Part shown: one piece after another, positions 10,865-48,387 of the stretch | How the letters are laid out: each line of letters starts with the position of its first letter | Numbering within the stretch: position 1 is the stretch's first letter | Assembly (NCBI RefSeq): GCF_947632095.1 | Contig: NZ_CANROA010000003.1 | Location: forward strand, 11,340 to 75,339 | Direction of reading: 5' to 3' | DNA: 64,000 nucleotides | Origin: an uncultured Microbacterium sp. | Lineage (GTDB): Bacteria; Actinomycetota; Actinomycetes; Actinomycetales; Microbacteriaceae | Made by a program: the position numbers and the translations under genes | The notes under the pieces: generated by a model | Database searches by the model: none | Told to the model about the DNA's origin: nothing | Seen by the model: the letters and a program-made list of their open reading frames with translations, nothing else

Positions 10865-12361
10865 TCACTGCTTTCCGAAAACGGGGTTGTGGACCTCGCC
10901 GAGATTGATGTGCACGGCCTGCTGGTCGGTGTAGAAATCGATCGAACGGTAGCCGCCCTCGTGGCCGAGGCCGGAGGCCTTGACCCCTCCGAACGGGGTG
11001 CGCAGATCCCGCACATTGTTGGAGTTCAGCCAGACCATTCCGGCCTCGACCGCGGCGGCGAAGTTGTGCGCGCGCTTGAGATCGTTCGTCCAGATGTACG
11101 CAGCAAGCCCATAGCGGGTGTTGTTCGCCAGAGCCAGGGCCTCGGCATCATCATCGAACGGCGTGATCGCGACGACCGGCCCGAAGATCTCCTCCTGGAA
11201 GATCCGCGCCTCGGGGGACACATCGGCGAACACGGTCGGGGCGACGAAGTTCCCGGTCTCGAAACCCTCCGGGCGGCCGCCGCCGGCGACGAGGCGCCCC
11301 TCGCTCCTGCCGATCTCGACGTAGCTCATGACCTTCTCGTAGTGCTCCGGGTGCACGAGAGCGCCGACCTCGGTGGCGGGGTCGTTCGGATAGCCGACCT
11401 TCACGCGCTTCGCCTGCGCCGCGTAGCGCTCGACGAACTCCTCGTAGATCGAGCGCTCGACAAGAATGCGGGATCCCGCGGTGCAGCGCTCGCCGTTGAG
11501 GGAGAACACTCCGAAGACGGTCGCGTTGATCGCGGCATCCAGGTCGGCGTCGGCGAAGACGACGGCGGGGGACTTCCCGCCCAGCTCCATCGACAGTCCC
11601 TTGAGGTGCGGGGCGGCATTGCCGAAGATGATCTGCCCGGTGCGGCTCTCGCCCGTGAACGAGATGAGCGGGACATCCGGATGCTTCACCAGCGCATCGC
11701 CGGCATCTTCGCCGAGTCCGTTGACGAGGTTGAAGACGCCCTTCGGCAGCCCCGCCTCTTCGAAGATGCCCGCCCACAGCGAAGCCGACAGGGGAGTGAA
11801 CTCCGCCGGCTTCAGGACGACGGTGTTTCCGGTCGCGAGCGCGGGGCCGAGCTTCCACGACTCGAGCATGAACGGGGTGTTCCACGGGGTGATGAGGCCC
11901 GCGACGCCGATCGGCTTGCGATTGACGTAGTTGATCTGGCGGCCGGGAACCTTGTAGGTGTCATCGGCCTGCGCGACGATCAGATCGGCGAAGAAGCGGA
12001 AGTTCTCCGCCGCACGTCGCGCCTGGCCGAGGGCCTGCGTGATCGGCAGGCCCGAGTCGAAGGACTCCAGCTCCGCCAGACGTGCATCGCGGGACTCGAC
12101 GATGTCGGCGATGCGGTGCAGCACGCGCGATCGCTCACGCGGCAGCATCTTCGGCCACGGCCCCTCGTCGAAGGCGCGCTTGGCCGCGGCGACGGCGCGG
12201 TCGATGTCGGCCTTCTTGCCGGCGGCGGCCGTCGTGTAGGTGTCGTTCGTGACGGGGTCGAGCACATCGAAGACATCGCCATCGGTCGAATCGACGAATT
12301 CGCCATCGATGTAGTGCCGGATGCGGTCCGGCAGGTCGTGCGGGATGCGGTTATCGGTCAT
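10865..12361 (-). CDS. hpaE: 5-carboxymethyl-2-hydroxymuconate semialdehyde dehydrogenase
   Basis: ALDH motifs PWNTPFML, SFTGES, MELGGKSP, FSLNGERCTAGSR, EEIFGP; position in hpa operon. Confidence 0.92.
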   Translation of the reverse strand: MTDNRIPHDLPDRIRHYIDGEFVDSTDGDVFDVLDPVTNDTYTTAAAGKKADIDRAVAAAKRAFDEGPWPKMLPRERSRVLHRIADIVESRDARLAELESFDSGLPITQALGQARRAAENFRFFADLIVAQADDTYKVPGRQINYVNRKPIGVAGLITPWNTPFMLESWKLGPALATGNTVVLKPAEFTPLSASLWAGIFEEAGLPKGVFNLVNGLGEDAGDALVKHPDVPLISFTGESRTGQIIFGNAAPHLKGLSMELGGKSPAVVFADADLDAAINATVFGVFSLNGERCTAGSRILVERSIYEEFVERYAAQAKRVKVGYPNDPATEVGALVHPEHYEKVMSYVEIGRSEGRLVAGGGRPEGFETGNFVAPTVFADVSPEARIFQEEIFGPVVAITPFDDDAEALALANNTRYGLAAYIWTNDLKRAHNFAAAVEAGMVWLNSNNVRDLRTPFGGVKASGLGHEGGYRSIDFYTDQQAVHINLGEVHNPVFGKQ

Positions 12362-17927: not shown

Positions 17928-19661
17928 TCAGCTGTTCACCCGGATGATCTCCTGCTGGTACGGGGCGATCACATCGCCGGAGATGCGCAGATCCAACAGC
18001 AGGAAGCGGCGTTGCGCCGGGTCCTCCGTACTCCAGGTGCCCAGGCGTTCGAGATCGGCGAGCGTGCGGACGACGACGCCCTCGGCGCCGACCGCCGCGG
18101 CGAGGGAGGCGAAATCGACCTCGGGGATGCGCATCGGCGCCTCGGCGAGGCCCTTGAGACCGTAGAGGTTCACCTCGGCGCCGTAGGCGGCGTCGTTCCA
18201 GATCACGGCGCAGCCGCGGCCGCGGGCTGTGCGCACCGCGGATTCGAGGTCGGCGATCGCCATCAGACCACCGCCATCACCGCTGGTGAGCACGATGGTC
18301 GAGTCGGGCTGTGCACGGCTCGCTCCCACGACGCTCGGCCAGCCGAGTCCGATCGCCTGGAACGCCGTGCCGACCATCATCACCCGATCGGGCGAGGCCA
18401 CCGGCCAGTACATGTTCGACCAGCCGAGGAAATGCCCGCCGTCGGAGACCACGTAGCGGTCGGCGGGCAGCAGCTCGCCGATGCGTCGGGCCGCCGAGCG
18501 GGGATCGAGACGGCCATCCGGGGCGAGGTCGTCGCCCGGCTCGTAGGTGCGCGCGGTCTCGATATCGACGCTCTCGCGCCACGCCGCGTGCATAACTCCG
18601 GAGGGACTGGCGGAAACCGGGGTCGCGGCATCCGAAAGCTGCGGGTTCTGCGGAAAATCTCCTGAGTTGTGCAAGGCGGAGGGCTGGGCGACCCGCTCCA
18701 CCAGTGCCTCCGCGACCAGCCGCGCGTCGCCGCGCACATAACCGCCCACATGCGGGTGGGTCGCGGCAGGGGCGACGTCGACCTGGAACACCGCGGTCCC
18801 CGGTGCGAACAGCTCGCCGAAGCGCATCGTGAACTGGTTCAGCGATGCTCCGAACACGACGGCCACATCGGCCTCGCGCACGGTGCTCATCGCCCCGTCG
18901 GCGCCGAACCCGCCCGTGACGCCGAGGTCGTAGGACGCGTTCGGGAAGATCCCTCGGCCCAGTGCGGTGGACGCGGTCAGCGCGCCCGTCGCCTCAGTCA
19001 GCTCTCCCAGCGCGGGCCCTGCACCGGCGAGCCACGCGCCGCGGCCGGCGAGCAGGAGCGGGCGCTGCGCCGAAGCGAGCGCTGCGGCGATCTCGTCGAG
19101 CATCCCCGACGCGAACTCGCCGTGAACGCCGAGCGGCTCGGGGGCGCGCGGGGCCGACACCGCAGGAACATCACCGGCGTCGACCGCGGCGACGTCGTAG
19201 GGGATTGCGAGCACCACGGGAAGGCGGTAGCTCAGCGCGTGCTCGATCGCGATGACGGTGGTCGCGGCGGCGTCCGTGCGCCCGACGGTGTAGGTTCGCG
19301 CCCCGACGGCCGAGGCGAGGGCGATCTGATCGACGTCCCAGGGGCGGGGCCCGGAGGTCGGCTCGTCGCCGACGATGAGCACGAGCGGTATGCGCGCCTG
19401 CACCGACTCGGCGAGGGCCGTGAGCGTGTTGGTGAAGCCGGCTCCGTAAGTGGCGGTTCCTGCGGCGATGCGGCCGGAGGCGCGGTAGTGGGCGTCGGCG
19501 GCGACGACGGCGCCCTGTTCGTGGCGCACCGCGGTGAAGGTCGCGGGGGTCTGACGTTCGAGGGCATCGAGGAAGTAGGCGTTGCCGTTGCCCATCACGC
19601 CGAAGACGGCGTCGATCTGCTGGGCGAGGGTGAGGGCGACGTGCGCGGAGACGGAGGGCAT
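17928..19661 (-). CDS. Thiamine-pyrophosphate-dependent enzyme (acetolactate synthase-like family)
   Basis: FGVMGNGN, VRHEQGA, GAGFTN, TPP motif SGDGGGLM...WND. Confidence 0.85.
   Translation of the reverse strand: MPSVSAHVALTLAQQIDAVFGVMGNGNAYFLDALERQTPATFTAVRHEQGAVVAADAHYRASGRIAAGTATYGAGFTNTLTALAESVQARIPLVLIVGDEPTSGPRPWDVDQIALASAVGARTYTVGRTDAAATTVIAIEHALSYRLPVVLAIPYDVAAVDAGDVPAVSAPRAPEPLGVHGEFASGMLDEIAAALASAQRPLLLAGRGAWLAGAGPALGELTEATGALTASTALGRGIFPNASYDLGVTGGFGADGAMSTVREADVAVVFGASLNQFTMRFGELFAPGTAVFQVDVAPAATHPHVGGYVRGDARLVAEALVERVAQPSALHNSGDFPQNPQLSDAATPVSASPSGVMHAAWRESVDIETARTYEPGDDLAPDGRLDPRSAARRIGELLPADRYVVSDGGHFLGWSNMYWPVASPDRVMMVGTAFQAIGLGWPSVVGASRAQPDSTIVLTSGDGGGLMAIADLESAVRTARGRGCAVIWNDAAYGAEVNLYGLKGLAEAPMRIPEVDFASLAAAVGAEGVVVRTLADLERLGTWSTEDPAQRRFLLLDLRISGDVIAPYQQEIIRVNS
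18589..18673. repeat. 85-bp palindromic element inserted in-frame in the TPP enzyme gene
   Basis: Terminal inverted repeats TGCATAACTCCGGAG / CTCCTGAGTTGTGCA (13/15); atypical codons; encodes about 28 aa (LHNSGDFPQNPQLSDAATPVSASPSGVM). Confidence 0.7.
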
Positions 19662-40770: not shown

Positions 40771-40852
40771 GACACATGCCGGCGGAAAACACGAATGTCG
40801 ATCGAAACCCGAAGGTTTCGACCGACATTCGTGAAAACGACCGACAGGTGTC
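40771..40852. repeat. 82-bp palindromic element, copy 1
   Basis: GACAC...GTGTC termini; 20-bp inner stem CACGAATGTCGATCGAAACC / GGTTTCGACCGACATTCGTG (19/20); homologous to 48306-48387. Confidence 0.75.
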
Positions 40853-48305: not shown

Positions 48306-48387
48306 GACACTCGTCAGTGATTCGTGACGGTTGCCGGTCGAAACAGCCTGTTTCGACCGGCAACCGTCATTTCGACTGACAAGTGTC
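48306..48387. repeat. 82-bp palindromic element, copy 2
   Basis: GACAC...GTGTC termini; 21-bp perfect inner stem TGACGGTTGCCGGTCGAAACA / TGTTTCGACCGGCAACCGTCA. Confidence 0.75.

Follow-up and report, generated by a model that had tools for sequence, protein, structure and literature searches.

An in-frame copy of a dispersed palindromic repeat in a Microbacterium thiamine pyrophosphate enzyme gene and a candidate DUF559 nuclease partner

A stretch of 64,000 nucleotides from an uncultured Microbacterium sp. (NCBI RefSeq assembly GCF_947632095.1, contig NZ_CANROA010000003.1, forward-strand positions 11,340 to 75,339; hereafter the window) contains a gene for a thiamine pyrophosphate (TPP)-dependent enzyme that harbors an 85-bp palindrome at positions 18589-18673. 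With high confidence, this palindrome is identified as a solo copy, carrying no gene, of a dispersed palindromic repeat of ~84 bp. The repeat, here termed family A, has a wide distribution in Microbacterium and other Microbacteriaceae; its copy in the enzyme gene is read through in frame and lies in a dispensable linker that joins the middle domain to the C-terminal one. Family A appears to behave like repetitive extragenic palindromic (REP) sequences and REP doublets forming hairpins (REPINs) rather than like a MITE (miniature inverted-repeat transposable element) derived from a transposase gene, because its copies lie downstream of genes, show no target duplication and have no parental insertion sequence (IS) in the genome to which the window belongs. 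In related genomes, copies of the repeat bracket a gene for a winged helix-turn-helix (wHTH) protein with a DUF559 nuclease domain. The whole explanation, combining a solo family-A copy, REP-like behavior and a nuclease partner, is in our judgment likely to be right, while the nuclease-driven mechanism taken by itself is a more tentative proposal that we place slightly on the doubtful side.

The in-gene palindrome and its repeat family

A sequence-only reading of the window had proposed an 85-bp palindromic element at this position, and both its coordinates and its sequence proved to be correct. The two arms, TGCATAACTCCGGAG and CTCCTGAGTTGTGCA, pair at 13 of 15 positions, and the inner stem CGGAAACCG/CGGCATCCG (window 18611-18619 with 18626-18634) is recovered in the predicted fold, in which the coding-strand RNA of the element forms a long hairpin containing this stem (-30.9 kcal/mol, z = -2.28 relative to shuffled sequences). 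The arm pair by itself is within chance in 64 kb, with 27 of 100 shuffles yielding at least two matches at ≤3 mismatches, and the case for a real element comes from its membership in a repeat family. An Rfam search of the element region with E-values up to 10 returned only a chance 14-nt match and no known RNA family. The heptamer GGATGCC/GGCATCC at the apex (window 18627-18633) occurs 3161 times in the host genome, 5.7 times the median of heptamers of the same composition and not the most frequent of them; as this abundance is probably largely codon-driven, the apex motif was given no weight.

The host genome (2.5 Mb in 107 contigs, 67.6% GC, placed in Microbacterium by protein matches) holds about eight copies of family A. 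A BLAST search with the 93-nt element region, the check for dispersed copies that the sequence-only reading had called for, gave paired arm matches on other contigs and led to seven further homologues, all full-length (74-87 bp), with which the window element aligns end to end, as it does with copies from other species. The host copies have in common TGCAYAACTCMGGAGA...TCTCCKGAGTTRTGCA and a part of the interior (GATTTTCCGCAGA...TTTCG), and the element thus has an orientation. One of them, on contig C57, contains a GC-rich, terminator-like inner hairpin; the copies on C4, C21 and C57 sit between convergent genes. In an alignment of 13 copies, pairing in the outer stem reaches 92%, and 6 of its 15 pairs have changed in a compensatory manner; this is far above control versions in which the partner was slid by a few columns.

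A covariance model of the repeat (R1) detected family A in 49 of the 61 Microbacterium genomes that were sampled; every match was 83-85 bp long, and there were 1-65 matches per genome (both strands counted). Of 80 further genera sampled from the Microbacteriaceae, 18 had the family as well. The window element itself scored 79.7 bits with R1, but had been part of the seed alignment. The outer stem of the family comprises 15-16 bp (GCAC-AACT..GGAGA / TCTCC..AGTT-GTGC), and the 21 dispersed copies in genome G054 are modular, consisting of GCACAACTTCGGAGAT, 6-9 unspecified nucleotides, CGACACGCCG, ~19-21 nt of free apex, CGGCGTGTCG, another 6-8 unspecified nucleotides and ATCTCCGAAGTTGTGC. The inner 10-bp stem CGACACGCCG/CGGCGTGTCG is present in G054 and in most other species, and this inner box is constant while the outer stem varies by species with compensation (TTCGGAG/CTCCGAA, GGCGGA/TCCGCC, CTCAGGAG/CTCCTGAG and GGATCCGGAG/CTCCGGATCC). 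The host copies lack the inner box and thus constitute a diverged subfamily of family A, which is seen also in Microbacterium sp. Bi121; an exact-pattern scan for the host-type arm in one genome per species returned this one additional Microbacterium copy and one chance match. Stem decay was greater in the host genome than in G054 with nominal significance, a weak difference that is driven by two copies with register shifts.

Apart from the in-gene copy, family A is intergenic and located mostly downstream of genes. All dispersed copies in G054 are intergenic, with eight between convergent and six between co-directional genes and none between divergent genes (0 of 16 determinable copies), and the intragenic share is low, amounting to one of about eight copies in the host genome and 1 of 22 in G054. 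Five copies within 20 kb in another genome (G029:C1:1457471-1477902) suggest that copies are locally clustered there. Downstream of pstB in G054 (L048:2600-2790, on contig C1), six tandem 30-bp repeats of the family-A right arm (GATCTCCGAAGTTGTGCGCGGGCAGGCGCG) directly adjoin a complete element and constitute an arm-only array.

The host linker and its empty and occupied states

The 577-aa TPP enzyme matches the Pfam domains PF02776 (residues 4-104), PF00205 (189-320) and PF02775 (407-539), and the element falls at residues 330-358, in the linker between the middle PF00205 and the C-terminal PF02775 domain. This location, which the sequence-only reading had judged likely, is borne out by the Pfam boundaries, by an AlphaFold2 model in which pLDDT (predicted local distance difference test) falls below 50 at residues 328-358 with confident helices on either side (mean pLDDT of the model only 56), and by alignments with solved acetolactate synthases, which break at the element-bearing linker. 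The element adds a loop of ~28 residues, apparently disordered on the model, to the enzyme. Codon usage in the insert is atypical, as had also been claimed: GC at third codon positions (GC3) is 19/29 (66%) in the 29 insert codons versus 488/548 (89%) elsewhere in the gene (Fisher p = 0.0011). Orthologues of ~80% protein identity are found across Microbacterium, and two further assemblies (P0002 and P0003) encode an identical 577-aa protein, so that the insert is not an assembly artefact. In one orthologue (P0048), a separate Pro/Glu-rich repetitive insert of ~39 residues (PEPAESFPEPAESFPDPAEG) occupies the linker between the N-terminal and middle domains (alignment columns 167-205); this linker may also accept insertions.

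The linker holding the element is hypervariable in length and sequence among the orthologous proteins, and comparison of the DNA of 30 orthologues from the genus resolved three linker classes. In the empty class (L023-L038), 39-57 nt separate the LVxRL and WRE motifs, versus 126-174 nt in carriers. The expectation that an alignment of orthologues would uncover an empty site with a 27-residue gap was thereby confirmed, since orthologue P0108 shows a gap of exactly 27 residues and the empty linkers measure 13-15 residues in many proteins; the host gene minus 81 bp would retain a 9-residue linker resembling them. In the family-A carriers (L010, L011, L012, L014 and L020), an element of exactly 85 bp is inserted in the same place and frame as in the host gene, and specifies a peptide of the form HxFG...SE[AV]V, versus HNSG...SGVM in the host; L018 contains a variant of the element. 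Different palindromes occupy the same site in L013, L017/L022 and L019.

In a gene tree from which the linker was masked out, carriers are interspersed with empty alleles within a clade of good support, and at least three changes are forced; for example, carrier L014 groups with the empty alleles L026 and L030 (support 99/92), and L012 groups with L015 and L023. This interleaving indicates that the element has been gained or cleanly lost several times. Because L010, L012 and L014 share the sequence GAGGC after the inner box, which is found in none of the listed dispersed copies of G054, the sequences favor a single insertion followed by several clean in-frame losses in the clade formed by these three. 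The host gene is sister to L017, the hairpin of which differs (TGCATGAGAAACCCC...GGGGTTTCTCATGCA) and corresponds to a low-copy dispersed repeat in genome G007, and the insert of L013 belongs to an abundant dispersed family in G037. As the L017- and L013-type inserts are dispersed repeats of their own genomes, the linker is, judging from these sequences, a hot spot colonized by several palindrome families. A fourth kind of palindrome (GCGCTCGGCGCGGGAA...TTCCGCGCGGAGCGC, with the peptide SARSARES...FRAERTSP) occurs at the same linker in L019 (genome G059) and in the proteins P0060, P0079 and P0105.

The closest carriers of the host-type element, P0006 and P0004 (76% nucleotide identity over the gene), have an outer stem that is preserved or perfect, with a compensated end CGCAT...ATGCG, and an unrelated interior. 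Retention of the stem while the interiors are unrelated indicates that the stem is constrained or homogenized even inside the gene.

A candidate nuclease partner and competing explanations

The search for a partner gene relied on pairs of family-A copies lying ~1 kb apart. In G054, a 288-aa open reading frame (ORF; 272 aa from a likely MC... start) with weak matches to DUF559 and REase_MTES_1575 lies between two such copies. When the genus was searched with this protein, 21 of the 22 closest homologues (L063-L084) among the best 30 loci were flanked by R1 matches, most of them on both sides; R1 discriminates too poorly between strands for the bracketing copies to be oriented relative to the gene. 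Most of the bracketed genes reside at one orthologous locus, pstB / class IV aminotransferase, and four (L078, L079, L082 and L083) at a second locus adjoining a PucR-like regulator gene; the same arrangement, with its own stem variant, recurs in another genus (G139).

Among eight aligned partner proteins, DUF559 is matched in all eight and AbiEi_4 in four. The AlphaFold2 model of the partner (pLDDT 85, predicted template modeling score 0.80) matches Rv2827c, the top full-length match, as well as AbiEi, I-Bth0305I, Vsr and NGO0050, and its C-terminal domain superimposes on I-Bth0305I (PDB 3r3p) with a template modeling (TM) score of 0.78 and a root-mean-square deviation of 2.5 Å over 100 columns. 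The candidate partner is thus most likely, as modeled, a protein of ~275 aa that combines an AbiEi-like winged helix with a DUF559 nuclease domain of the Vsr/I-Bth0305I type. A search for genes flanked by the element had been suggested by the sequence-only reading and yielded this bracketed gene in relatives. The accompanying idea of a mobilizing enzyme encoded elsewhere was not upheld for the host genome: the candidate family-A partner unit is absent from it, where pstB and the aminotransferase gene lie 16 nt apart on contig C14, leaving the usual locus empty.

The only DUF559 gene of the host genome, on contig C11, is bracketed by two 98.8%-identical repeats of ~85-100 bp that belong to a second palindrome family, family B, of which the window contains gene-less copies (Table 1). 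The distant DUF559 paralogues L085 (G058), L088 (G042), L089 (G004), L090 (G015) and L092 (G044) are bracketed by still other repeats (33-83 nt, 83-100% identity), which are palindromic in the case of L088, L089 and L090 and have stems built on GCGGATGCCGCGA / TCGCGGCATCCGC in the case of L088 and L089. The sequence CGGATGCCGCG occurs 315 times in the host genome, recurs in the apices of family-A copies of several species and forms the stems of other DUF559-flanking palindromes.

In the mechanism that we propose, the wHTH-DUF559 nuclease would recognize the folded or duplex boxes of family-A repeats and would act at the hairpins, with subsequent copying or repair giving rise to both spread and loss. 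Nuclease action together with repair could account for the repeated colonization of the linker, for clean in-frame loss and for stems that are kept while interiors drift, and palindromes would in this way attract further palindromes. The host genome would have lost, or never had, the family-A partner gene, making its eight copies, the in-gene one included, orphans. Somewhat more doubtful again is the fuller hypothesis that family A and the wHTH-DUF559 gene constitute a vertically inherited REPIN/RAYT-like system (RAYT, REP-associated tyrosine transposase) built on a Vsr/I-Bth0305I-type nuclease, in which break repair may copy repeats into and out of hairpin-bearing sites.

Several observations weigh against these proposals. 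The link between family A and the nuclease is one of association, drawn from sequence, and because most bracketed genes share one orthologous locus, few of the associations are independent (within the genus two loci, outside it one in another genus, and the other pairs of paralogue and palindrome). R1 matches are more numerous where the bracketed gene is present (median 15.5 versus 3; p = 0.004), which favors the link, but the correlation ignores phylogeny and is partly circular in that the bracketing copies themselves add to the counts. Some copy-rich genomes (G014 and G040) lack close homologues of this gene. All copies in the host genome lack the inner GACACGCC box, that is, the CGACACGCCG/CGGCGTGTCG stem, and carry GATTTTCCGCAGA...TTTCG instead. 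The structural model of the TPP enzyme is poor overall. Lastly, in alignments of close carrier/empty pairs the linker was too diverged to define exact junctions, and independent insertion and inheritance are therefore inseparable for the host lineage.

The strongest competitor, although we consider it unlikely, holds that the repeats are structural motifs of the host, such as terminators, mRNA-stabilizing hairpins or protein-binding sites, that were spread and homogenized by recombination or slippage, with the DUF559 gene a selfish or defense-related bystander caught by chance between two 3'-end hairpins and the in-gene copy a tolerated accident. The position of the copies downstream of genes and never between divergent ones, the terminator-like hairpin of the C57 copy, the conservation of stems while interiors drift (fitting a function at each copy) and the sharing of one orthologous convergent locus by most bracketed DUF559 genes are all consistent with such motifs. 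However, motifs of this kind leave unexplained why constant units of ~84 bp appear at new sites, one of them inside a gene, why repeats stand on either side of the nuclease gene at a second locus as well as in a different genus, and why DUF559 paralogues are bracketed by other palindrome families; with ~20-30 copies in ~3000 intergenic regions, we infer that both flanks would be occupied by chance with a probability of ~1e-4. Far less probable is a linker that is simply hypervariable and in which the palindrome originated on the spot, whether accidentally or because it serves this gene, for instance through a translational pause or an mRNA structure. The variability of the linker among orthologues and the chance-level score of the arm pair in 64 kb would permit this, yet it is refuted by the full-length homologous copies that exist elsewhere in the genome and across the genus; in addition, the inserts found in other species correspond to families dispersed in the respective genomes, and the composition of the insert is foreign; of all the explanations considered, we give this one the least credence.

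Hardly more credible is a classical MITE, that is, an internally deleted IS moved by a transposase that recognizes its terminal inverted repeats, with duplication of a 4-bp TGCA target, as the sequence-only reading had suggested when it described the element as non-autonomous and MITE- or REP-like. The terminal inverted repeats and the small size fit, and removal of 81 bp does restore ...ALHAAWR in frame; TGCA, however, forms the self-complementary terminus of the palindrome, so that this arithmetic does not show a target duplication. Across 28 copies the mean flanking direct repeat is 1.36 nt, versus 1.48 nt in shuffled pairs, and the first and last bases differ from copy to copy (T/C/G/A...A/G/C) next to an invariant GCAC...GTGC, so that the outermost base pair of the supposed inverted repeat is not fixed. 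A scan of the host genome for the terminal inverted repeats (≤3 mismatches) found no inverted pair 0.7-3 kb apart, only short elements or isolated 3-mismatch matches, and the interiors of the copies are unrelated, in contrast to those expected of recent deletion derivatives. What stands of the earlier description is a dispersed palindromic family; the MITE label was dropped, there being no IS with such ends in the host genome and no target duplication. Slightly less probable still is a REP/REPIN moved by a RAYT or an IS200-type Y1 transposase, which would agree with the REP-like location and the absent target duplication, and the host genome does encode one Y1_Tnp protein (C15:20980-21342; PF01797, E = 1.9e-42). 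Against this, five copy-rich genomes (G054, G029, G003, G014 and G040) have no PF01797 match, and the Y1 gene of the host lies in a low-GC, IS200/IS605-like patch and is flanked by neither family-A nor family-B palindromes. The Y1 gene, which encodes an unrelated TnpA of the IS200/IS605 type, adjoins an apparent TnpB remnant.

Table 1. Coordinates of the in-gene element, its host gene and related repeats (window numbering unless a contig of the host genome is given)
Feature	Description	Position	Strand	Basis
Family-A palindromic repeat	85 bp; forward orientation TGCACAACTCAGGAGATTTTCC... is the coding strand of the TPP gene	18589..18673	minus	sequence, homologous copies, R1
Outer stem, 5' arm (coding orientation)	TGCACAACTCAGGAG, translated (L)HNSG	18659..18673	minus	arm pairing, 13-copy alignment
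Outer stem, 3' arm (coding orientation)	CTCCGGAGTTATGCA, translated SGVM(H)	18589..18603	minus	arm pairing, 13-copy alignment
Inner stem-loop	coding strand CGGAUGCCG / CGGUUUCCG; interior unconserved even in closest relatives	18611..18634	minus	minimum free energy fold
Host gene	TPP-dependent enzyme, acetolactate-synthase-like, 577 aa, ORF intact	17928..19661	minus	ORF and translation
Codons overlapping the element	29 codons, residues 330-358, LHNSGDFPQNPQLSDAATPVSASPSGVMH, low GC3	18588..18674	minus	codon count
Family-A homologues in the host genome	seven further copies	C2:86848-86930, C4:85461-85543, C9:28190-28273, C20:35458-35540, C21:29241-29314, C52:9402-9485, C57:8440-8522		
Family B, gene-less copies	~82-bp palindrome, ends GACAC...GTGTC, arm GACACTTGTCAGTCGAAATGACGG (GACACTTGTCAG...); between convergent genes	40771-40852, 48306-48387		
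Family B, bracketing copies	around DUF559 gene at ~17524-18354 of C11	C11:17340-17440, C11:18365-18468		

Relation to known systems and significance

Three groups of short bacterial repeats offer themselves for comparison. As in Rickettsia palindromic elements (RPEs; originally reported by Ogata et al., reviewed in PMC10969869), a dispersed palindrome lies in frame in an enzyme gene and adds a peptide at a surface or linker position with the ORF left intact. In contrast to RPEs, the element measures 85 bp rather than ~100-150 bp, its host is a high-GC actinobacterium of a different phylum, family A is seldom intragenic while RPEs frequently are, and family A has a candidate partner gene; the analogy with RPEs drawn by the sequence-only reading thus extends to the outcome, a peptide added in frame. 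REP/REPIN-RAYT systems (PMC3116915, PMC3337134, bioRxiv 10.1101/2021.07.10.451892) likewise consist of short extragenic palindromes downstream of genes that lack target duplications, persist vertically over long times and have a low-copy partner gene bracketed by repeats, but the gene bracketed by family A encodes a wHTH protein with a DUF559 nuclease domain (PD-(D/E)XK, Vsr-like) and not a Y1 HUH transposase, and the repeat is one long two-stem hairpin without a GTAG head instead of a doublet of ~20-nt REPs. Bacterial MITEs such as Correia, ERIC and RUP (PMC3184786, PMC10969869) resemble family A in being shorter than 300 bp, non-coding, multi-copy, bounded by terminal inverted repeats and sometimes fused in frame to ORFs; family A differs in having no target-site duplication (28 copies), no parental IS in the host genome and unrelated interiors. 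By analogy, then, family A is like RPEs in outcome and like REP/REPIN-RAYT systems in genomic behavior, and it is assigned to neither, a RAYT being missing from the five copy-rich genomes.

The predicted fold of the candidate partner is shared with the Vsr-fold homing endonuclease I-Bth0305I (PDB 3r3p), Vsr (1cw0) and M. tuberculosis Rv2827c (1zel), but the partner gene has no intron or intein context and is free-standing between two hairpin repeats. Integron attC sites were also considered, since they too are imperfect palindromes that combine conserved outer and inner boxes with unpaired spacers and have a variable center, and since 6 of 7 positions in the family-A ends GCACAAC/GTTGTGC agree with RYYYAAC/GTTRRRY. 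This reading was dropped on distribution and stem anatomy, in view of the scattering of single copies downstream of resident genes, with no cassette arrays, and of a continuous outer stem of 15-16 bp that has no extrahelical bases. A search of the accessible literature found no paper describing the family-A sequences or their association with the nuclease, and both appear to be undescribed.

To our knowledge, in-frame colonization of genes by palindromic repeats is a textbook phenomenon only for Rickettsia, and we know of no mobilizing enzyme for most bacterial REP-like repeats outside RAYT-bearing proteobacteria. The TPP enzyme gene provides a clean actinobacterial case of in-frame palindrome insertion: empty alleles exist, gain or loss has recurred, and several repeat families have independently hit one linker. 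It thus amounts to a natural experiment in the making and removal of protein segments by selfish DNA. Bracketing of the nuclease gene across two loci, another genus and several pairs of paralogue and repeat points to a specific candidate enzyme for an orphan class of repeats and bears also on DUF559, a very common domain of unknown function. If the nuclease-driven system that we tentatively propose is real, it would explain how one linker came to be colonized by at least three or four palindrome families and repeatedly and cleanly vacated in frame, why interiors drift while stems are retained and show co-variation inside a genome, and why copies decay in genomes that, like the host's, have lost the nuclease; each DUF559 paralogue would then service its own palindrome family.

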